Assembly: GCA_040882565.1 (NCBI GenBank)
Contig: JBBEAZ010000024.1
Coordinates: 301,137 to 365,136 of the forward strand
Direction of reading: 5' to 3'
DNA from: Dehalococcoidia bacterium
GTDB lineage: Bacteria > Chloroflexota > Dehalococcoidia > SM23-28-2 > RBG-16-64-32
Length of the DNA: 64,000 bases
Part shown: positions 3,600 to 60,743 of the stretch, one piece after another
Layout of the letters: every line of letters begins with the position of its first letter
Position numbering within the stretch: the first letter of the stretch is position 1
The notes under the pieces: model-generated
The model's database searches: none
The model's input: the letters and a program-made list of their open reading frames with translations, nothing else
Told to the model about the DNA's origin: nothing
Made by a program: the position numbers and the translations under genes

Positions 3600-4814
3600 A
3601 TGCAGACGGTAACGGGGTTGCGGCGTGCTCTAACGCCACTAATCGTGCTTGGAATTGCCGCCGGCGTCATTGTCGGCATCGTCTCTGTTGGCGACCGCGC
3701 AGGCGCCAATCATGATGCTATCGCCTGCAACGACGACATACCTGCCGGCTACACCTGCGTGCCCCTGGTCAACAAGCCCGATTCAGGTCCCGGCATCAAC
3801 ACGCCCGCCATCGGCGAGCTCTTCTACCAGTTCGTCGACGCCGATACGATGCGCATCGCCGTCCGCGCGCTGCCCAGCCAGGGCGCCGTCGACGTCGGCA
3901 CGAACCACCAGTTCTGCCTCGACGACGACAACGAGCCCTATGCGTGGCCCACTCCGGGCGCCAACGAGCCCAACCACTGCACGGGCGCCGCCGCAGCTGC
4001 CGTCAACGTCGTCGACGGATCGGCCGGCATCCCGGACTCCAGCGCCGAGCCCGATGATGACACCGCCGCCGGCCTCCTCGGCGAGTACGAAGTGCGAGTG
4101 GCCGGCCTCGTCAGCGACGGCACTGTGGCCAGCATGGACTACTACGAGTTCAACAACATCGACGGCTACTCGTTCTTCGTCTACCACGTCAACATCGGTC
4201 AGTCGTCCACCCAGGCGTTTTGGACCGGTGGCCCACCAGTCGAAACGGCTTCGCCAACGCCATCGCCGACCGCGTCACCGACCGCAACCGCCTCGCCTAC
4301 TGCCACAGCTTCGCCGACCGCAACCGCCTCGCCGACGGCGTCCGCCACAGCGACTGTGATGGGCTCACCCACCGCAACTTCCACACTGGCCGAAGACACG
4401 GCCACGCCGTCACCCACGCCAACGCCGACGAGCACAGCTACCCCGCCGCCCGATACTGACACTCCTGGACCCACGCCAACGCCGACGGGTACACCTACAG
4501 CAACGCCGACGAACCCGCCGACTGCGCCGCCCACTCCGACGCCCTCGCCAACCGCGGAACAGGCTACCCAGACGCCCGCTCCCACCAACACCCCGGCGCC
4601 GACTAATACGCCGGCGCCGACCAACTCGCCGACGCCCACGCCCTCAGCGACCGTCCTCCTCGCCACCGCGACGCCGGTTGGCTTCCCGCCCACCGGTGGC
4701 GGGCCGGCAGCGGATGGCACCACCGCTGGCTTGCTACTGACACTTCTCGCGGGGCTGGCGTTGCTGGCCGCGGGCGGCATGAGCCTCGCCGCGGCCCGCA
4801 CACCCCGCGACTAA
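3600..4814 (+). CDS. secreted or cell-surface protein with Thr/Pro/Ala-rich repeat linker and C-terminal sorting-signal-like tail
   Basis: N-terminal hydrophobic signal/anchor (LIVLGIAAGVIVGIVSV), globular domain, about 150 aa of (ASPTAT)n and (TPAPTN)n repeats, then FPPTGGG followed by a hydrophobic helix and the basic tail ARTPRD; GGGAG RBS. Confidence 0.7.
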   Translation: MQTVTGLRRALTPLIVLGIAAGVIVGIVSVGDRAGANHDAIACNDDIPAGYTCVPLVNKPDSGPGINTPAIGELFYQFVDADTMRIAVRALPSQGAVDVGTNHQFCLDDDNEPYAWPTPGANEPNHCTGAAAAAVNVVDGSAGIPDSSAEPDDDTAAGLLGEYEVRVAGLVSDGTVASMDYYEFNNIDGYSFFVYHVNIGQSSTQAFWTGGPPVETASPTPSPTASPTATASPTATASPTATASPTASATATVMGSPTATSTLAEDTATPSPTPTPTSTATPPPDTDTPGPTPTPTGTPTATPTNPPTAPPTPTPSPTAEQATQTPAPTNTPAPTNTPAPTNSPTPTPSATVLLATATPVGFPPTGGGPAADGTTAGLLLTLLAGLALLAAGGMSLAAARTPRD

Positions 4815-4829
4815 CCCCGCACCGCGCAC

Positions 4830-4877
4830 ACAAAAAACGGGGGTCGGGCATCAGCCCGGCCCCCGAATCTTTTCGTG
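4830..4877. terminator. bidirectional intrinsic terminator between convergent surface-protein gene and clpC
   Basis: 10-bp GC stem (GGGGGTCGGG/CCCGGCCCCC, one G-U pair) with 6-nt loop, A-tract upstream and TCTTTT downstream. Confidence 0.5.
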
Positions 4878-4883
4878 CTTGCT

Positions 4884-7337
4884 CTAGACCGCTACCGGCT
4901 CGGGCGTCTTCGCCTTGTCGAAGGCGTATTCGCCGTCCGCGTAGTCGACGTGGGCCACGTCGCCCTCGCTGAACTCGCCGGCGAGGATGCGCCGTGAGAG
5001 CGGGTTCGCGATACGCCGCTCGATCGTCCTGCGCAGGGGCCGCGCACCGTAGACCGGATCGTAGCCCTCGTGGACCAGCGCTTCCTTGGCCGCATCCGTC
5101 AGCTCGAGACCGACGCCACGGTCGGCGAGGCGCTCGCGCACGTCGGCCAGCAGCAGCTCGACGATCTTCTTGAGGTCGTCCTCGGTCAACGGATCGAAGA
5201 CGATTATCTCGTCGATGCGGTTCAGCAGCTCCGGCCGGAAGGTGGCCCGTAGCGCCTTCTCGATGTCCGCTTTTTGCTTGTCCTTCTCTGACTTCGACGG
5301 CTTGTCCTGCGCCAGGCCGAACCCGAGCGCTTGCCTGTGCAGCGCCTCTGTACCCAGGTTCGAAGTCATGATCACGACCGTGTTGCGGAAGTCGACCGTT
5401 CGGCCGTGGCCGTCCGTCAGGCGGCCGTCGTCCAGCATCTGCAAGAGGACGTTGAACACCTCCGGGTGCGCCTTCTCGATCTCGTCGAGGAGGATCAGCC
5501 GGTAAGGGCGCCGGCGCACCGCCTCGGTCAGTTGCCCGCCTTCGTCGTAGCCGACGTAGCCGGGCGGTGAGCCGATCATCCGCGAGACTGTGTGCCGTTC
5601 CTGGTACTCGCTCATGTCGAGCCGCACCATCGCGTCCTGGTCGTCGAAGAGGAACTCGGCGAGAGCCCTCGCCAGCTCTGTCTTGCCCACCCCGGTCGGC
5701 CCGAGGAAGATGAACGAGCCGATCGGCCGGTTCGGGTCCTTGAGCCCGGCGCGGGCGCGGCGGATCGCGTCCGACACAGCCTCGATCGCCTGATCCTGCC
5801 CGATCACCCGGTCGTGCAGGCGCTCCTCCATTTGCAGGAGCTTCTCCGGCTCGCCCTCAAGCATCCGGTTCACCGGGATGCCGGTGATCTTCGCCACCAG
5901 CTCGGCGATGTCGTGCTCGGTGACGCGCATGTCGTCTTGACCCGTTTCCTTGAGCCATTCGTCGCGCTTCTGCGTGAACTCGGCGCGCTTGGCTTCGAGT
6001 TCTGCCTTCACGCTGGCGTTCGTCTCCCAGTCCTCGCGCTCGGCGGCGGCTTCTGCCTCCCTCTCCAGCTTCTCGACTTCCTTTTCGAGCTTGCGGACGT
6101 CTGCCGGCATGCTCTGCGCATCGATGACGTGCTTCGAGGACGCCTCGTCGATCAGGTCGATCGCCTTGTCAGGGAGAAAGCGCTCAGTGACGTAGCGCGC
6201 CGAGAGCCGCACAGCAGCCTCGATCGCCTCGTCCGTGATCTGGACTTTGTGGTGCGCCTCGTAGCGCGGCCGCAGGCCCTTCAGGATCTCGATCGCCTCT
6301 TCCTCCGAGGGCTCGTCGACGTAGACCGGGGCGAAGCGGCGCTCCAGCGCCGGGTCCTTCTCGATGTACTTGCGGTATTCGTCGAGCGTTGTCGCGCCGA
6401 TGACGTGCAACTCGCCGCGCGCCAGCGCCGGCTTGAGCATCGTCGAGGCGTCGATCGCGCCTTCCGCGCCGCCCGCGCCGACGACCTGGTGGATCTCGTC
6501 GATAAAGATGATGATCTCGCCCTGCGAGCGCTTGATCTCGTCCACCACTGCCTTCAGCCGCTCCTCGAACTCACCGCGGAACTTCGAGCCGGCGACCATT
6601 GCGCCCATGTCGAGCGCGAGCACCCGCTTGTTCTGCAAGTTCTCCGGCACGTCGCCGGCGACGATCCGCTGGGCCAGCGCCTCGGCGATCGCCGTCTTGC
6701 CGACGCCGGCCTCGCCGATGATCACCGGGTTGTTCTTCGTCCGCCGGTTCAGCACCTGCATCACGCGCCGCACTTCGTCGTCCCGGCCAATGACCGGGTC
6801 GAGCTTGCCCTGTCGCGCCGCCTCTGTGAGGTCGATCGCGTACTTTTCGAGGGCGTTGTACTTAGACTCCGCCGTCGGGCTGTCGACGCGCGCGCCGCCG
6901 CGGACGTCCTGGAGCGCCTGGTAGATGCGCTCCTTCTCGATCCCGAACTGCTTGAGGATGCGCGCCGCCTCGCCCTCGCGCTCATCGCTCATCGCGATCA
7001 GGATGTGTTCGACGCCGACGTACTCGTCCTGCAGGCGCTCCGCCTCCGCGTTCGCCGCCTCGAGCAGGCGCACGATCCGCGGCGTCGTGTAAATCTGCAC
7101 GACGTCGTAAGAGAGCTTCGGGCTCGACTCCAGCGCTCGTGCGACGGCCTGCCGCAGGCGGTTCTTGTCGACGCCCAGCTTCTCGAATATCTGGGGCGTG
7201 ATGCCCTTGTCGTAAGTGACCAGCGCCATCAGCACGTGCTCCACGTCCCACTGAGCGTGCCGGTCGCGCCGGACCATCTCCTGTGAGGCCGCGAGTACTT
7301 CCTGCGCGCCTTCTGTGAATCTGTCTTGTCTCATCAT
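4884..7337 (-). CDS. clpC: AAA+ Clp ATPase, ClpC-type (double Clp_N, two NBDs, short M-domain, LGF ClpP-docking loop)
   Basis: 817 aa; Walker A GEAGVGKT and GPTGVGKT; M-domain about 80 aa (ClpC-length, not ClpB-length); HRQALGFGL loop insert typical of ClpP-binding Clp ATPases. Confidence 0.85.
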
Positions 7338-7351
7338 GTTGCGTTACCTCT

Positions 7352-8353
7352 CTACGGTTTGTGCCCGGCAGTAGCGGCTGAAATCGGCACGACGCCAAAA
7401 ATTCGCACGTTCCCCGGGTTCGGCTCATCAGTCTTGAACTTCGCTTCATAGGGACGGAACCACAATCCCGCCTCCCCTGATCCATCATCACGTGCGCCAG
7501 ACCCATCCATACCGGGAACGAAAAGGCCCGGCCCGAACTGATAGGCGATGCCCCTTGCTAGGCCTAGCTTTGCGTTGCCAGCGACGAAATTCTGGTTCGC
7601 CTCATGCCATACCACCCAAGGCGCGTAATTCTCCACCGGGTCCGCGGATGGGTGAAATGTGCTTCGAGCTAGGCCATTCTGGGTCAGCGAGACTGTCAAC
7701 ACTTCACCATTTATTATCTGGGCGAACTCTGACTTACTGGCCCCCATCCGAATCACTTCCACTAAGGCTGTCTCCACGCCGTCCAGTTGGCGATTCCTGA
7801 TGGCTGCGTCTAGACGTCGACGGCCTGCTCGGTCAATCGACTGGTGAGCACCTATGATCATTGCAAGCCCCCGCCCTGGCTTCTCAACCACAAAATGTTG
7901 GACAGAAAAATGGTCCTTCGTTGCGGTGCTTGAATCTGGAACGAAACCAAGATCTGTGTTGGAAACCACCCAAAGATGGGGTGCCACGGTTTTGCCGTCA
8001 TTCCGGTAGCCTGCTATTGAAAATGCGTGCTGCTTAGGAACATTCCGGATCCGCTCGAAGAGCTTGGTCGCGTGTTCGGCGATGATTTCGACGCCGACTT
8101 CAATCGGCAATTCAACCACGCCTTCAGTGGCCGCCAATTCCGCCAGCCATTGGTCCATGAATTTGCCGTTGTACATTCCGATGCCCGCGAACGTGATGGC
8201 AAACTGGCCATCCTCGGCATTCACGATGACGCCCTTGTTTGCATCATCCTTAATGGAAGACGTGAGCCGGCCCCTCGTATCGAGCATCACCATGCGGCGG
8301 TCAGACGCCTGAATGACGTAGCCCGCGGTAAGAAGGCTTATGTTGATCGTCAT
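7352..8353 (-). CDS. hypothetical protein X of unknown function, low-GC (about 50-53%) gene embedded in the heat-shock operon
   Basis: 333 aa ORF; start overlaps hspR stop in ATGA; 14 nt upstream of clpC start; no recognisable motifs; base composition clearly lower than neighbours. Confidence 0.6.
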   Translation of the reverse strand: MTINISLLTAGYVIQASDRRMVMLDTRGRLTSSIKDDANKGVIVNAEDGQFAITFAGIGMYNGKFMDQWLAELAATEGVVELPIEVGVEIIAEHATKLFERIRNVPKQHAFSIAGYRNDGKTVAPHLWVVSNTDLGFVPDSSTATKDHFSVQHFVVEKPGRGLAMIIGAHQSIDRAGRRRLDAAIRNRQLDGVETALVEVIRMGASKSEFAQIINGEVLTVSLTQNGLARSTFHPSADPVENYAPWVVWHEANQNFVAGNAKLGLARGIAYQFGPGLFVPGMDGSGARDDGSGEAGLWFRPYEAKFKTDEPNPGNVRIFGVVPISAATAGHKP

Positions 8354-8769
8354 CAGTCTCGTTCCTCCGCCCCCGGCACCGCCGGCAGCACCCTGTCCCG
8401 ATACACCTGCAGCTCCTGGCGCAGGCGATCCATGTCATGCTCCATGCGCTGGATGCGCTGCTTCATGTTCATGATCACTTCGACCCCGGCGAGGTTCACG
8501 CCGAGGTCCTGCACCAGCCGCTGGATGTTGCGCAGATGCTCGATGTCGGCCTGCGAGTACAGCCGCACCCGCCCCTGCGAACGCCCCGGCCGGATCAGTC
8601 CGATGCGCTCGTAGTTGCGCAACGACTGCGCGTGCATCCCGACCATCCGCGCCGCCACGCTGATCACGTAGCACGGCTCGTCCTGCGGGTGGCTGTTCGT
8701 GCGTCGTTCGTTCATCACTGGTTGTTCCATATCTGTTCGTCCGTATCGGAAATCCCTTGCGCTTCGCAC
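8353..8769 (-). CDS. hspR: MerR-family heat-shock transcriptional repressor HspR
   Basis: MerR HTH (YVISVAARMVGMHAQSLRNYERIGLI) and position immediately downstream of dnaJ as in dnaK/dnaJ-hspR operons; true start may be MEQPVMNE near 8730. Confidence 0.8.
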   Translation of the reverse strand: MRSARDFRYGRTDMEQPVMNERRTNSHPQDEPCYVISVAARMVGMHAQSLRNYERIGLIRPGRSQGRVRLYSQADIEHLRNIQRLVQDLGVNLAGVEVIMNMKQRIQRMEHDMDRLRQELQVYRDRVLPAVPGAEERD

Positions 8770-8777
8770 CGTGAAGG

Positions 8778-8870
8778 CACGAAGGTGCAGCGGGGCCGCT
8801 GCCGGGGGGTTCGGGGGGTGTCCCCCCGAGACCCCCTAATTTTTGGGCGGGGGGCGGGGGCAATGCCCCG
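8778..8870 (+). repeat. interspersed structured repeat, copy A (two adjacent GC hairpins plus G-tract tail)
   Basis: CGAAGGTGCAGCGGGGCCGCTGCCGGGGGGTTCGGGGGGTGTCCCCCCGA; shares the core with 4 other copies in this window. Confidence 0.85.
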
Positions 8871-8896
8871 CAGGGTGGACGAACGCAACAACAACG

Positions 8897-9946
8897 TCAT
8901 CGCTTTGCTCCCGCCGGCGCCTTACGCGATTCGCGCAACTGCTCGAACAACGCCCGTTGCTCATCCGTGAGCGACTCCGGAATCGCCAGCCGCACCCGAG
9001 CGTACAGGTCACCATGACCCTTGGCGCCGGCCCCGCGGGCGCCCGTCTGGGCGAGCTTCGGCATGCCAAGGCCCTTCAGCTTGATCTGCTTCCCGTTCTG
9101 CGTCAGCGGCGGCACCGTGATCGCGATCCGCTTGCCGGCGATCGTCTGCACCTCCACCTCGCCGCCGAGGACCGCGTCCTCGACCGGCACCGAGACGTCC
9201 TCGATCAGGTCGTCGCCCTTGCGCTCGAAGCGCGGGTGCGGCCTGACCTTCGTGACGACGTAGAGATCGCCGCGCGGGCCGCCGCGGCCGGATGAGCCCT
9301 CGCCGGCGATGCGGACGCGGGTGCCGTCGCGCGCCCCGGCCGGGATCTTGACCTCGATCGTCTTCGGCCGGGCGACGATGCCTGAGCCTTCGCAGGTGTG
9401 ACAAGTAGCGCTGGCGATGTGTCCCGTCCCGCCACACGTCGGACAAGGCTCTTCGCTCTGCAGGTGCAGTGTACGGGTCGTCCCGTTATACGCCTCCTCG
9501 AGCGTGATCTCGGTCGCGTACTCCACGTTCTGGCCGCGCATCGGACCGCGTCCCTGGCCGCCGAACATGCTGCCAAGGACGTCGCCGAAATCGAAGCCGC
9601 CGTTGTTCGCACCGCGGCCGCCGCCCGAACGTCGGAGCAGATCGTTTATGTCAAACGTGAATGTCTGCGAATTCCCACCGCCTTGCGATGCGTAATGGCT
9701 GCGCGCCTTCTCGTAGGCTTCGGCCTGTTCCCAGTTGTCACCGTAACGGTCGTACTTGGCACGCTTCTCCGCGTCGGAGAGAACGTCGTGCGCCGAGTTG
9801 ATCTCTTTGAACCTGCGCTCTGCCTCGGCATCGCCCGGATTCACGTCCGGGTGATGCTTACGGGCAAGCTTACGGAACGCCGCCTTGATCTCCTTCTGGG
9901 AGGCGTCCCGCTTGACGCCGAGCGCCTGGTAGTAGTCCTTCGCCAT
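8897..9946 (-). CDS. dnaJ: molecular chaperone DnaJ (ORF track extends to 10048; start at MAKDYYQ)
   Basis: J-domain with HPD, G/F-rich region, four CxxCxGxG zinc-finger repeats, C-terminal domains. Confidence 0.9.
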
Positions 9947-9956
9947 ATCTGACGTA

Positions 9957-9985
9957 ATTGTATCTGGAACAGGCGCGGCAGTCAA
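9957..9985 (-). promoter_or_regulatory. candidate sigma70-like promoter for dnaJ operon (TTGACT, 17 nt, TACAAT); implies leaderless or very short-leader mRNA
   Basis: On the minus strand TTGACT-17-TACAAT ends about 10 nt before the dnaJ ATG, with no SD in between. Confidence 0.3.
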
Positions 9986-10201
9986 CGCTAGGTGCAATAA
10001 AGTTGACACGATCATTGTCAGTGATATTGATATGCGGAATCGTCCCAATGGGAGGCCTTAGCCGCAGGGCTTCCGGCCCTGCCTCAAATCACAAATACGC
10101 GGGACCACTCCCGGGCCATCCACTCCCAGAACGTTGATTGAGTATAATTTCGCCTGCAGGCTGCAACCGCGAGTCGGAACTAGAGGAAGGAGCGATGTGA
10201 G

Positions 10202-46158: not shown

Positions 46159-46985
46159 ACCGCCTCCATGTAGTGGGGCACCGTCGCCATGTACTCGGCG
46201 ACGACCCGCTTGGCCGGGCCGTCAGCGGCGAGGCGGCCATGGTCCAGCCAAATGGCGCGGTCGCAGAAGCTAGTGATCGTCTCGGCGCTGTGAGAGACGA
46301 CCACAATCGTTATGCCGCGCTGTTTGAACTCGTGCATACGCTCATGGCACTTCTCCTGGAAGAACGCGTCCCCCACCGACAGCACCTCGTCCACGAGGAG
46401 GACTTCCGGATTGCTGTGGACGGCGACGGCGAAACCTAGACGAACGTACATGCCGGAGGAGTAGCGCTTGACCGGCATGTCGATAAATTCCTGCAGCTCG
46501 GCGAACTCGACGATCGCCGGGAACTGCTCGTTGATCTCACGCTCCGACATGCCGAGAATCGAGCCGTTAAGGTGCACGTTCTCACGGCCGGTAAGGTCGG
46601 GGTGGAAGCCAGCGCCCAGCTCGATAAGCGGCGAGACGCGGCCGCCGACGAACACCTGCCCCTCGCTCGGCGCGGTGACCCCGGCAATGAGCTTGAGCGC
46701 AGTACTCTTGCCGCTGCCGTTGCGGCCGATGATGCCCAACGTTTCGCCCCGCGCCACGGTGAAACTGACGTCCGTGAGCGCGCGAAACTCATCGCCCCAG
46801 GGCTTACGCGAGATGATGGCGGTGGCGAACTCGCGCAGGGTACGGCCGTCCTTCAGGAAGAAGCGCTTGGTGACGTCACGGAATTCGATCTCGGGCTCAG
46901 GATCGAGCGGATTAGATGCTGTCTGCAAATCCCTTTTCCATCTTCTTGAACAGGTAATAGCCGCCAAGGAACGTGACAACCGCAA
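46155..46985 (-). CDS. wzt: ABC transporter ATP-binding protein, Wzt/TagH type without C-terminal carbohydrate-binding module; start possibly TTG near 46928
   Basis: Walker A GRNGSGKST, signature YSSGM, Walker B LLVDEVL; only 276 aa. Confidence 0.85.
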   Translation of the reverse strand: MRLSRSLAAITCSRRWKRDLQTASNPLDPEPEIEFRDVTKRFFLKDGRTLREFATAIISRKPWGDEFRALTDVSFTVARGETLGIIGRNGSGKSTALKLIAGVTAPSEGQVFVGGRVSPLIELGAGFHPDLTGRENVHLNGSILGMSEREINEQFPAIVEFAELQEFIDMPVKRYSSGMYVRLGFAVAVHSNPEVLLVDEVLSVGDAFFQEKCHERMHEFKQRGITIVVVSHSAETITSFCDRAIWLDHGRLAADGPAKRVVAEYMATVPHYMEAV

Positions 46986-47757
46986 TCACAACGCCCAGCA
47001 AAACTTTCTCCACGTCCGGGTCCTCCCCGTAAAGCATCGTCCGGCGATAGGCGTCAATGAACACGGCATTGGGGTTGAGGTCGAAGAGGATCTCGTATTT
47101 GTCCGGAACGATATCCACCGGGTAGATCACCGGCGTCAGATAGAACCAGAGCGTGAGCGCCACACCAACGAGGAACCGGACGTCATGGAAGTAGAGGTTG
47201 AGCGCGGCCAGCGGGTATGTGAGCCCGAGCAGGAAGATGAGGTGGATGCCGAAGAGGAGGGGCAGCCAGTACGACGTGGCCTCGGGCAACCGGCCATAGT
47301 AGGCCATCAGCGCGCCGAGAATCACCAGCCCGAAGAACAGGTCGACTAGTTTCGTGAAGACGGCCGCCGTGGGCAAGACCTCGCGCGGGAAGTAGACCTT
47401 CGTGACGAGCGTCGAGGCATTCACGACGGAGTCGGTCCCGGACGACAGCGCGTTCGAGAAGAAGAGCCAGGGAATGAGGCCGACGAAGAGGAAGAGCGGA
47501 TACGGCAGGTCACCGGCCGGTTGCACCCGCAAGATCGTGGAGAATACGAACGAGAGGATGATCATCTGGCTGAGCGGGTTCACGAACGCCCAGGCATAGC
47601 CGAGGACCGATTGTTTGTACTGGCCGCGCAGGTGGCGGATCGTCATGTGCCAGAGCAGGTCGCGCCGGCGCCAGAAGCCGAGCAAGTTCGCGGCCATGTC
47701 GAACGGGCCGGTGGCAGTGGAAAGCGGTTGCCTGCGGAGGGATTGGGATCGAGCCAT
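46912..47757 (-). CDS. wzm: ABC-2 type polysaccharide export permease
   Basis: 281 aa, 6 TM helices, ABC-2 family pattern. Confidence 0.8.
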   Translation of the reverse strand: MARSQSLRRQPLSTATGPFDMAANLLGFWRRRDLLWHMTIRHLRGQYKQSVLGYAWAFVNPLSQMIILSFVFSTILRVQPAGDLPYPLFLFVGLIPWLFFSNALSSGTDSVVNASTLVTKVYFPREVLPTAAVFTKLVDLFFGLVILGALMAYYGRLPEATSYWLPLLFGIHLIFLLGLTYPLAALNLYFHDVRFLVGVALTLWFYLTPVIYPVDIVPDKYEILFDLNPNAVFIDAYRRTMLYGEDPDVEKVLLGVVIAVVTFLGGYYLFKKMEKGFADSI

Positions 47758-60037: not shown

Positions 60038-60070
60038 GTCACTCCTCCGGCGGTACTGTAGCAGATGAGC

Positions 60071-60409
60071 TTAGGTGTACACCGTGAACTTCCACCACCG
60101 TCCTTCGAAGTGATCGAACGAGTGGTAGCCTTGAGGCTTGGTAGGCGCGCCGCCATCGCATCGGGCAAAGCCACTGGGGCCAACCAAGAACGAACCACCG
60201 GTGACAACGAAGACACAGTCACCCCGCAAGTAGACATCATCGACGTGGTACAGTCCCGCCCAATCGTCGGGGCCGCCACCGGTTGCCCCCGTGGCCAGGT
60301 ATTCATCGGCGACGCGGTTGAGGGCTGCTTCGCTCACATCAAATCTTGCATGCATGGGCAATTCGGCCCGGGCCGCCAGAATGAATACTGCCAGAGCCAT
60401 GCCGAGCAA
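60071..60409 (-). CDS. hypothetical small secreted protein (signal-peptide-like N-terminus)
   Basis: MLGMALAVFILAARA signal-like start; lower-GC region; overlaps the next ORF. Confidence 0.3.
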   Translation of the reverse strand: MLGMALAVFILAARAELPMHARFDVSEAALNRVADEYLATGATGGGPDDWAGLYHVDDVYLRGDCVFVVTGGSFLVGPSGFARCDGGAPTKPQGYHSFDHFEGRWWKFTVYT

Positions 60410-60743
60410 TCACGAGACTCGCGGCGACACTCACAGCCCTTAAGAAATTCTGACGCGCAAAGCCGGAAACCCCGAGGACGATAAGCGCCATTCCAAATGC
60501 ATACATCCCCAGGCAGGCAAAGAGCCATGCGAAGAAGAGAAGGTCTCCCACCATCAACGTTCCAGAGCGTTCGCTAAGCTCGAACAGCGACCAGAGCAAC
60601 CAGCTGAGTGCGATCGCTGAGCTGATTAGAAAGACAGCTCGGGGCGAGAAGTCCTCAACTGCCTGCGGGAACAGTGACCTCACGGCGACATCCCGAACTG
60701 ATCGGTGGGCTGATGGTGGAATTGGGTTGCAGTTCGACGACAT
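60339..60743 (-). CDS. hypothetical membrane protein
   Basis: 134 aa with 3 hydrophobic helices in a lower-GC (about 55%) stretch; overlaps 60071..60409, so only one of the pair may be real. Confidence 0.3.
   Translation of the reverse strand: MSSNCNPIPPSAHRSVRDVAVRSLFPQAVEDFSPRAVFLISSAIALSWLLWSLFELSERSGTLMVGDLLFFAWLFACLGMYAFGMALIVLGVSGFARQNFLRAVSVAASLVIARHGSGSIHSGGPGRIAHACKI

Follow-up and report, generated by a model that had tools for sequence, protein, structure and literature searches.

The window analysed here is the whole 64,000-nt stretch of a Dehalococcoidia contig, and all coordinates refer to it. On its minus strand, a gene of 333 codons, gene X, lies between hspR and an Hsp100 gene in an operon that opens with dnaJ. 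The genes and signals of this operon, in the order of transcription, are listed below.

10004..10020, unstranded: HAIR-like inverted repeat TGACA-N7-TGTCA 5' of dnaJ, candidate HspR operator
9957..9985, minus strand: sigma-70-like promoter TTGACT-17-TACAAT directly 5' of dnaJ (10 of 12 positions, by consensus match only)
8897..9946, minus strand: dnaJ, 349 aa, true start ATG at 9946 (MAKDYY...), Pfam DnaJ and DnaJ_C; the gene call from the NCBI contig agrees on this start
8353..8769, minus strand: hspR, MerR-family heat-shock repressor (NCBIfam NF047375, 118.7 bits against a cut-off of 105)
7355..8371, minus strand: inserted foreign segment of about 1.0 kb, comprising only a ribosome-binding site and an ORF (from alignments A3 and A4 with relatives)
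8364..8368, minus strand: Shine-Dalgarno GGAGG of gene X, inside the final hspR codons, 10 nt 5' of the ATG
7352..8353, minus strand: gene X, 333 aa, ATG start, predicted proteasome-like N-terminal-nucleophile (Thr1) hydrolase
4884..7337, minus strand: Hsp100 of ClpC architecture, 817 aa (Pfam Clp_N, AAA, AAA_lid_9, AAA_2 and ClpB_D2-small)
4838..4865, unstranded: GC-rich hairpin 3' of the Hsp100 gene, with a 12-pair stem that contains 11 G-C pairs

Gene X differs from its neighbours in composition. At 0.556, its GC content falls below that of dnaJ, hspR and the Hsp100 gene (0.64–0.66) and of the window as a whole (0.651); its GC3 is 0.62, which no other window gene undercuts, against 0.79–0.90 in those three neighbours. 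Among about 50 long ORFs of the window (mean GC 0.653, sd 0.024) it has the lowest GC, and its codon adaptation (0.418) is the lowest of 38 window genes (mean 0.672, sd 0.066, z -3.8). The original prediction had described the gene as compositionally foreign and proposed the codon-usage and GC3 comparison, which bears the description out. At its 5' end, the hspR stop (TGA, 8355–8353) shares one base with the ATG of gene X (8353–8351), and a second in-frame TGA follows this TGATG. At its 3' end, 14 nt lie between the stop (TAG, 7354–7352) and the Hsp100 ATG at 7337, a gap that holds the Hsp100 Shine-Dalgarno GAGG (7350–7347). The 14-nt distance and the overlap with the hspR stop had thus been described correctly, but the overlap is the single base of TGATG and not a four-base ATGA. 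An NCBI MAG contig and two independent Logan assemblies reproduce the hspR-X-clpC junction, and the protein corresponds to three NCBI accessions, which excludes a chimeric assembly at this locus.

The alignment of the Hsp100 with B. subtilis ClpC runs in one stretch through both proteins (5–806 against 4–803), but that with ClpB breaks into two pieces, so the gene may fairly be called clpC. The label ClpB, the best NCBIfam match of the Hsp100, was set aside since that match is under the cut-off and the architecture favours ClpC. The D2 region contains the motif ALGFGL, which we read as a ClpC-like LGF loop that may dock ClpP. The canonical HAIR sequence (CTTGAGT-N7-ACTCAAG) was not found in the window with up to three mismatches allowed, so we infer HspR control from the variant repeat; thirteen relatives carry TGAGT-N7-ACTCA at the equivalent site just 5' of dnaJ. 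The hairpin downstream of the Hsp100 gene is likely to terminate both this operon and the convergent gene. A scan for terminator-like sites found none at the hspR/X and X/Hsp100 junctions and one weak match within X. This agrees with the original view of a clean insertion between hspR and the Hsp100 gene. Gene X is probably co-expressed with the HspR-controlled operon, and the earlier claim of co-regulation with the heat-shock response is in this sense probable, given the uninterrupted junctions and the promoter-like site and HAIR-like repeat 5' of dnaJ.

The history of the insertion was followed through related loci. hspR and clpC are neighbours in 74 of 74 loci with detectable hspR (of 80 clpC loci compared), with a median gap of 80 nt, and gene X is missing at all 80. 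The original prediction had named presence at this position, with the same composition, across the whole clade as a finding that would speak against it, and the synteny comparison gave the opposite. Homology with the relatives' hspR ends at ...GTGCCGGGG (about 8371) and picks up again with the native clpC leader, TAGAGAGGTAAC, from 7354 onward. Correspondingly, the C-terminus of HspR is conserved up to ...VLPAVPG and departs from its relatives beyond it, the last ~5 codons having been remodelled by the insertion, and the low-GC tract coincides with the inserted segment. Neither the junction sequence nor the alignments with relatives showed a recognisable attC, inverted repeat or target duplication. 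A test of gene X as an integron cassette found no bounding attC sites, and there is no room for one, since the stop abuts the clpC Shine-Dalgarno and the start overlaps hspR.

The spacer between hspR and clpC holds cargo of more than 300 nt in 13 of the 74 loci, among them 12 of the 16 closest relatives. The cargo includes Spore_YtfJ, a methyltransferase, unknown proteins and, at locus L021, a foreign Trypsin_2 peptidase that is unrelated to gene X. The spacer is a recurrent gene-gain slot, a hotspot inside the conserved operon of this clade. The insertion had been called unusual; the insert is indeed foreign, but unrelated cargo repeatedly occupies the same spacer in the nearest relatives. 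The tight packing of gene X by clpC and the independent insertion of the L021 peptidase could mean that the location is selected rather than incidental.

The fold of X was probed by structure prediction and profile comparison. The AF2 model (pLDDT 92.6, pTM 0.92) contains the alpha-beta-beta-alpha Ntn sandwich with strands S1–S10 and helices H1–H4. A Foldseek search with the first model of X gave 47 PDB matches at E<1e-3, essentially all to 20S proteasome subunits, plus one taspase-1 chain. The domains and the predicted active-site residues map as follows.

7649..8353, minus strand: Ntn core, residues 1 to ~235, strands S1–S10 and helices H1–H4
7355..7648, minus strand: C-terminal beta-rich extension, residues ~236–333, model strands E241–E323, with no counterpart in 20S beta/HslV
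8348..8350, minus strand: Thr2 codon, predicted nucleophile Thr1 once Met is removed; nearly invariant in alignment A2
8300..8302, minus strand: Asp18 codon, equivalent to proteasome Asp17; invariant in 111 sequences
8234..8236, minus strand: Lys40 codon, equivalent to proteasome Lys33; invariant in 111 sequences, the hairpin of X being 6 residues longer
8183..8185, minus strand: Gly57 codon, equivalent to Gly47 of the oxyanion hole; invariant in 111 sequences

Thr occupies position 2 in 127 of 155 family proteins, nearly all of which align from residue 1, and members with a short loop, such as P0055, have a mature numbering of exactly T1/D17/K33. The start of another homolog, P0002, had been mis-called; it resolves to TTG-Thr after GGAGG, and the arrangement (GGAGG, 8 nt, TTG-Thr) is like that of gene X. 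Comparison of the family profile with single sequences by hhalign pairs Asp18 with Glu17 in the beta subunit of T. acidophilum and with Asp17 in E. coli HslV; the register is right, but the matches fall short of significance (E 0.02–0.03) and count as supporting evidence only. The C-terminal extension is shorter or missing in family members of 260–290 aa, and that of X has no Pfam match. PF00227 (Proteasome) was matched by 2 of 111 family members (best E 9.4e-4), X not being one of them. Single-sequence scans of X against Pfam and NCBIfam gave no match, and searching PDB sequences with the A1 and A2 profiles returned nothing significant for X, so the proteasome-like assignment rests on predicted structure and residue conservation. 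PheRS, beta-lactamase and LmuA were rejected as relatives of X, their PDB profile matches being at chance level (E>0.05). Judged by the model and the conserved residues, X is a proteasome-like Ntn hydrolase fold with the Thr1/Asp17/Lys33/Gly47 set. It had been said to contain no recognisable motifs, a statement that does not hold: fold and residue set together constitute a proteasome-family N-terminal-nucleophile signature.

An exhaustive profile search recovered 2041 clusters (50% identity), 598 of them at E<1e-10 and almost all aligned from residue 1. The family includes SEC-C-tailed and TPR-fused forms, and its clusters are tiny and sporadic. The word-indexed homolog search for A2 was dominated by SEC-C-motif proteins. 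The contexts of several members are those of mobile elements. P0160 (locus L093) lies in an integron-type cassette with attC-like hairpin repeats at 7892–7993 and 8855–8956, in an array that also carries toxin-antitoxin cassettes. Gp30 of Gordonia phage Nymphadora lies by integrase and HipA in the lysogeny-side region of this temperate phage. A viral scan with family sub-alignments yielded a single locus. Mycobacterium plasmid pJCM17324 carries a member adjoining a recombinase, and toxin-antitoxin (TA) genes are present on the plasmid. The plasmid and phage members were found with a more central family member as the tblastn query; X itself gave no match against plasmids. Transposase or resolvase neighbours occur at further family loci, and several members sit among ordinary metabolic genes. 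An all-against-all BLASTP of neighbouring ORFs identified a serine recombinase as the only recurrent neighbour, and none of 134 neighbouring ORFs encodes an AAA+ ATPase; in all, about 30 other family loci show no AAA+ neighbour. A PADLOC-DB 2.0 scan of X matched 0 families at E up to 10, and a PHROGs scan gave one weak match of unknown function. The integron, prophage, plasmid and recombinase contexts, with no AAA+ neighbour, point to cargo of mobile elements and away from a chaperone partner that co-evolved. The suggestion of a novel stress or proteostasis factor is possible only loosely: X is a putative peptidase, and the contexts of its family point elsewhere.

We consider it likely that X is a stand-alone proteasome-like hydrolase, carried as mobile cargo and acquired horizontally into the hspR-clpC slot, and that its adjacency to ClpC is incidental. 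If X works as proteasome beta subunits and HslV do, Met1 would be cut off by methionine aminopeptidase, exposing Thr1, whose hydroxyl would attack an amide (peptide) bond of the substrate. Lys33 (Lys40 in X) and Asp17 (Asp18) would assist Thr1, and the backbone of Gly47 (Gly57) would provide the oxyanion hole. The C-terminal beta domain of ~100 residues probably binds a substrate or a partner. This Dehalococcoidia lineage would have gained X as a minimal unit of ribosome-binding site and ORF, which took the place of the ~100-nt spacer between hspR and clpC. Most likely, X is transcribed from the HspR-controlled dnaJ promoter with its translation coupled to that of hspR, and it would thus be induced by heat shock. 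Adjacency to ClpC would then be a result of the landing site and not a sign of a co-evolved AAA+ partnership.

The same position suggests another explanation, in which X serves the neighbouring ClpC-type unfoldase as its peptidase and forms rings fed by the Hsp100 during heat shock, in the manner of HslUV or ClpCP. X is packed translationally between hspR and the Hsp100 gene, with its stop against the Hsp100 Shine-Dalgarno; the unrelated foreign peptidase of L021 occupies the same slot; and the characterised proteasome-fold proteases (20S proteasome and HslV) act with AAA+ rings (PMC8665760). We nevertheless regard such a partnership as improbable. Eighty relatives have the same Hsp100 and no X, the composition of X is foreign, which implies a recent arrival, and the slot gathers non-protease cargo too. 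AAA+ neighbours are missing at the other family loci (about 30), and among the new proteasome homologs described by Fuchs et al. none was found to have an AAA+ partner (PMC8665760). The Hsp100 has neither an HbYX-type nor an HslU-type C-terminal tail, and its LGF loop, in our reading, would suit ClpP. The broader proposal that the hspR-clpC junction is a docking slot that recruits foreign peptidases to a heat-shock unfoldase, X here and the trypsin-like enzyme in L021, and that X and the Hsp100 make up an unseen AAA+/proteasome-like protease, seems to us just as doubtful.

X and its family may instead be conflict or anti-phage effector proteases, set off in infection or stress, for which the heat-shock operon is an incidental home. 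The integron array with toxin-antitoxin cassettes, the lysogeny side of the temperate Gordonia phage, the plasmid with TA genes and the tiny, sporadic clusters are all consistent with this, and uncharacterised integron cassettes reportedly code for phage defence (bioRxiv 10.1101/2024.07.02.601719). The scans of X gave no PADLOC match and only the weak PHROG match, however, defence-type partner genes do not recur (the sole repeated neighbour is the serine recombinase) and several members keep metabolic company. An argument from association with mobile elements is a weak one, and we think an effector role unlikely but worth keeping in mind. That X acts as a sequence-specific ligase or transpeptidase in the manner of archaeal connectase (MJ0548; PDB 6ZW0), and not as a hydrolase, appears very improbable; helices H1/H2 are missing from connectase, which has an S3/S4 helical lid, whereas X keeps H1–H4. 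The original prediction had also offered a ClpC adaptor, and a non-catalytic adaptor or scaffold would account for the position by clpC, the one observation in its favour. It is hard to reconcile with the modelled enzyme fold and with a nucleophile, Asp, Lys and oxyanion Gly that are invariant or nearly so in more than 100 diverged sequences. Pfam and NCBIfam show no similarity of X to MecA, McsB or ClpS, and the family is found without ClpC neighbours; we give this reading hardly any credence.

Orphan proteasome homologs are numerous, but only HslV, Anbu, BPH and connectase have been characterised, and for the newer ones neither an AAA+ partner nor a telling genomic context has been reported (PMC8665760). 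The present analysis shows one such family to be far bigger than catalogued (~2,000 clusters, with no Pfam model) and to travel as mobile-element cargo, as an integron cassette, a prophage-region gene, a plasmid gene and a neighbour of recombinases. It also supplies a natural case of a member inside an HspR-controlled operon, directly 5' of a gene for a ClpC-type unfoldase, where the ability of such homologs to work with a housekeeping AAA+ protein can be examined. Should X and the Hsp100 assemble, this would be the first AAA+ partner for an 'orphan' proteasome homolog.

In the HspR regulon of Streptomyces and Mycobacterium, hspR is co-transcribed with chaperone genes (dnaK-grpE-dnaJ-hspR, and clpB) under an upstream inverted-repeat operator, a feature shared by TGAGT-N7-ACTCA in the relatives studied here. 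Unlike those operons, the present one has the order dnaJ-hspR-(cargo)-clpC-like, takes foreign genes at its hspR-clpC junction and has, in the window, the variant TGACA-N7-TGTCA as operator. X and the 20S proteasome beta subunits and HslV (MEROPS T1, PF00227) have in common the alpha-beta-beta-alpha Ntn fold and the Thr1/Asp17/Lys33/Gly47 constellation. E. coli HslV and X both start with Met-Thr and have no propeptide, and the heat-shock operon of X recalls hslVU. However, X has 333 aa against 175–230 aa in 20S beta/HslV, and it is a foreign, sporadic gene, whereas the 20S proteasome and HslV are housekeeping. Nor is X an HslV (ClpQ) in the strict sense: it matches no HslV model, is not ~175 aa and has no adjacent hslU. 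Genes for an alpha subunit, HslU, Mpa or PAN are likewise not found beside it.

The X family is closest to Anbu (ancestral beta subunit, PDB 5LOY/5LOX), although Anbu has 13% identity to X with no sequence-level match. Anbu has a long C-terminal helix where X has its ~100-residue beta-rich domain, and X neighbours hspR and clpC in place of the conserved Anbu-type operon context. A further counterpart is the 'Distant Actinobacterial proteasome Homolog' (DAH) of Fuchs, Alva & Lupas (2021), a distant homolog from group II (Anbu/WPH) that carries an extra C-terminal domain, its fold unknown, and has a range of Actinobacteria, Proteobacteria, Cyanobacteria, other bacteria and phages (PMC8665760). 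DAH was described from 77 sequences, with WP_085249540.1 as the representative (PMC8665760). This accession was not among the NCBI members in a family-cluster look-up. Against those 77 sequences, the present search counts ~2,000 clusters for the X family, SEC-C-tailed and TPR-fused forms included. The X family, like DAH, has an extra C-terminal domain, Mycobacterium plasmid and Gordonia phage members and an affinity to the Anbu side, and it is probably the DAH of Fuchs et al. (2021).

The cluster examined lies on the minus strand of the window and comprises the following genes in the order dnaJ, hspR, X, Hsp100.

8897-9946, minus strand: dnaJ, first in the order
8353-8769, minus strand: hspR, between dnaJ and X
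7352..8353, minus strand: X, ATG start, 333 aa
4884-7337, minus strand: Hsp100, 817 aa, downstream of X

The hspR stop codon (TGA, 8355-8353) and the X start codon (ATG, 8353-8351) have one base in common, so the overlap is TGATG and not the ATGA given in the original prediction. The 14 nt predicted between X and clpC were found: they separate the X stop codon (TAG, 7354-7352) from the ATG at 7337, and the Hsp100 Shine-Dalgarno sequence (GAGG, 7350-7347) lies within this gap. Identical hspR-X-clpC order in Dehalococcoidia MAG GCA_040876785.1 and two independent Logan assemblies, together with three NCBI accessions for the X protein, establishes that the feature is genuine and not an assembly artefact. 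Hsp100 aligns with B. subtilis ClpC in a single stretch (5-806 against 4-803) but with ClpB in two, and scores under the ClpB equivalog cut-off, which makes "ClpC-type" a fair label. A 404-aa ORF (3600-4814, plus strand; no Pfam family on record) is convergent with the Hsp100 gene and has an unusual codon-position GC pattern (GC2 0.64); the two share a hairpin (4838-4865) that is likely a bidirectional terminator.

The composition of X is foreign to its neighbors, as had been proposed. Its GC content is 0.556 (0.64-0.66 in dnaJ, hspR, and Hsp100), the lowest among ~50 window ORFs (mean 0.653, sd 0.024), and its GC3 is 0.62 (0.79-0.90 in the same three genes). It also has the lowest codon adaptation among 38 genes (0.418 versus 0.672 ± 0.066, z -3.8). 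Two other plus-strand ORFs, 46468-47349 (CAI 0.488, GC 0.61) and 60065-60484 (GC 0.59, GC3 0.61), are atypical and may be foreign.

An Hsp100-based scan of species-representative genomes yielded 80 Dehalococcoidia/Chloroflexota loci (61-87% identity). Both hspR and the Hsp100 gene were detected in 74, with dnaJ upstream in most of these; X was present in none of the 80 and is thus not clade-wide at this position. The hspR-clpC gap has a median of 80 nt and measures 122 and 107 nt in the two closest relatives. In junction alignments, homology to relatives stops inside the hspR tail (...GTGCCGGGG, ~8371) and restarts at TAGAGAGGTAAC, the native clpC leader, which delimits a foreign segment of ~1.0 kb consisting of a GGAGG ribosome-binding site and the ORF; the insertion is as clean as predicted. 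The inserted GGAGG now forms the final hspR codons. The X stop codon sits at the border with the native leader, where one related locus (L010) has the same GTAGAGAGGTAAC and another (L012) has TAGAGGT. At the insertion boundaries we saw neither an attC nor an inverted repeat nor a duplication. In the closest relative (L047:3868-3905), the hspR 3′ end carries ~5 copies of a 7-nt tandem repeat, GGTGACA, so the HspR C-terminal tail is variable; this is the tail remodeled by the X insertion in the window.

We surveyed the hspR-clpC spacers of L010-L089, counting cargo where the spacer exceeded 300 nt. Cargo of 0.4-2.1 kb was present in 13 of the 74 loci, and 12 of these 13 are among the 16 closest relatives. 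It comprises at least eight kinds, indicating repeated gain in the clade closest to the window organism: a YtfJ/GerW-like protein (nine loci), an O-methyltransferase, four unrelated unknown proteins, a PLD-like protein (weak match), and, in L021, a foreign Trypsin_2 peptidase (GC 0.54 versus 0.66) packed as tightly as X. Example loci are as follows.

L021:451-1311, spacer cargo
L013:813-1655, spacer cargo
L017:1927-3984, spacer cargo
L014:3435-4004, spacer cargo
L022:2794-3987, spacer cargo
L037:3249-3947, spacer cargo

We conclude with high confidence that X is foreign and, equally, that it was inserted as a bare ribosome-binding site and ORF unit into a slot where gene gain is frequent.

Family-library scans with the X sequence (Pfam, NCBIfam, PADLOC, PHROGs) gave no informative match, and a word-indexed search of 5.8 billion proteins returned only five relatives (36-41% identity). 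In their alignment, every sequence opens with Met-Thr-(Ile/Leu)-Asn-Ile-Thr and then carries Q-A-S-D-R-R, D-A-N-K-G, and F-A-G-I-G; the seeming exception, P0002, has a TTG start behind GGAGG that restores Met-Thr. When 1.84 billion representatives were searched exhaustively by HMM, 2041 clusters matched (598 of them at E<1e-10), and in almost every one the alignment begins at the cluster's own residue 1. Thr occupies position 2 in 127 of 155 family proteins. Asp18, Lys40, and Gly57 do not vary across an alignment of 111 sequences, in which Met1, Thr2, Ser17, Arg19, and Arg20 are almost invariant. Once Met is removed, this set would be the proteasome constellation Thr1/Asp17/Lys33/Gly47, and proteasome numbering matches exactly in members whose first hairpin is short (e.g., P0055). 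Two family members match Pfam PF00227 at ~1e-3. Comparison by hhalign with T. acidophilum beta and E. coli HslV gave the expected register without significance: SDRR pairs with TERR and GDGQ, and NK pairs with KK.

An AF2 model of X from six sequences had a usable core (pTM 0.73); compared with the PDB by Foldseek, it matched 20S proteasome subunits almost exclusively at E<1e-3, with one taspase-1 chain besides. The model from 111 sequences is confident (pLDDT 92.6, pTM 0.92), with S1-S10/H1-H4 order in the core (residues 1 to ~235) and an additional beta-rich domain (~236-333). The original prediction had described X as lacking recognizable motifs and as a possible ClpC adaptor; the proteasome-like fold and intact catalytic set argue against both. 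We have high confidence in X as a putative proteasome-fold (N-terminal-nucleophile) Thr1 hydrolase, and low confidence in any statement of what it cleaves. HslV was rejected because there is no HslV model match, the size differs, and no hslU lies alongside; Anbu was rejected because there is no sequence match and both C-terminus and context differ.

Annotations of the family in all sources read "hypothetical" or "SEC-C domain-containing". Some members have a C-terminal SEC-C zinc motif (P0095, P0156-P0167, P0251-P0256) or long fused TPR arrays (P0083, P0102, P0148), a hint that these modules recruit partners or substrates. The family's clusters are tiny and their contexts heterogeneous. P0160 is a cassette (L093:8001-8852) in an integron-like array (L093:1-12936; ENA ERZ25039495 contig_10163), where an imperfect hairpin repeat of ~100 nt (CTAATCACTGCATGCAGCTGACAAAGGC...GCCTTTGCAGCTGATGCGACTGCATTAG, fold z -4.4), present in 11-14 copies, separates unidirectional small ORFs, including BrnT and Gp49 toxin cassettes. 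The family also includes Gordonia phage Nymphadora gp30 (hhalign E 3e-34, Foldseek E 2e-13), encoded by the first leftward gene past the tail genes, near an integrase and a HipA toxin. A Mycobacterium marseillense plasmid member (E 9e-26) adjoins a recombinase, and P0005, the closest homolog with context, has a Mutator-type transposase alongside. Some other members are surrounded by ordinary metabolic genes. A Pfam census of 134 neighboring ORFs at 28 family loci contained no AAA+ ATPase; the only mobility-related recurrences were resolvase (3 hits) and transposase (2 hits), and the only recurrent neighbor by all-against-all BLASTP was a serine recombinase.

No terminator-like site was found by scanning the X/hspR and X/clpC junctions; one weak match lies within X (7538-7526), and a strong hairpin lies downstream of the Hsp100 gene. 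The dnaJ start is ATG 9946 (MAKDYY), and the 383-aa ORF call from TTG 10048 is probably over-extended. Immediately 5′ is a promoter-like TTGACT-17-TACAAT (9985-9957), whose -10 box is only ~10 nt from the ATG, pointing to a heat-shock mRNA with no leader or almost none. Upstream of this site is an inverted repeat, TGACA-N7-TGTCA (10004-10020). The canonical HspR operator inverted repeat (HAIR) is absent from the window; its core, TGAGT-N7-ACTCA, occurs at the equivalent position just upstream of dnaJ in 13 relatives (L035, L036, L038, L042-L044, L048, L053, L055, L056, L059, L062, and L078), which makes HspR autoregulation of the dnaJ-hspR-X-clpC operon likely. Both half-sites of the window repeat differ from this core in a compensating manner. 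X would then be heat-inducible and coupled in translation to hspR, and we have moderate confidence that X and the HspR regulon are expressed together.

The adjacency of X to the Hsp100 gene, with one parallel case in the L021 Trypsin_2 peptidase, is the whole basis for the reading in which X and the ClpC-type Hsp100 form a new ClpC/proteasome-like protease pair and the slot recruits peptidases; we consider this reading improbable. X remains a single-lineage insertion and a member of a known superfamily. The position of X nonetheless provides the first natural juxtaposition of these orphan proteasome homologs with an unfoldase, and an anonymous ORF has become a testable enzyme worth modest follow-up.

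Fuchs, Alva and Lupas (2021; PMC8665760) described 22 new proteasome-like subfamilies, for which neither informative context nor an AAA+ partner was reported. Among the papers found citing that study, none characterizes DAH-like proteins. DAH ("Distant Actinobacterial proteasome Homolog"; representative WP_085249540.1) is a distant group II homolog whose C-terminal domain has no match, and it occurs in Actinobacteria, Proteobacteria, Cyanobacteria, other bacteria, and phages (PMC8665760). Set beside this published description, the X family is a good fit and is probably DAH.
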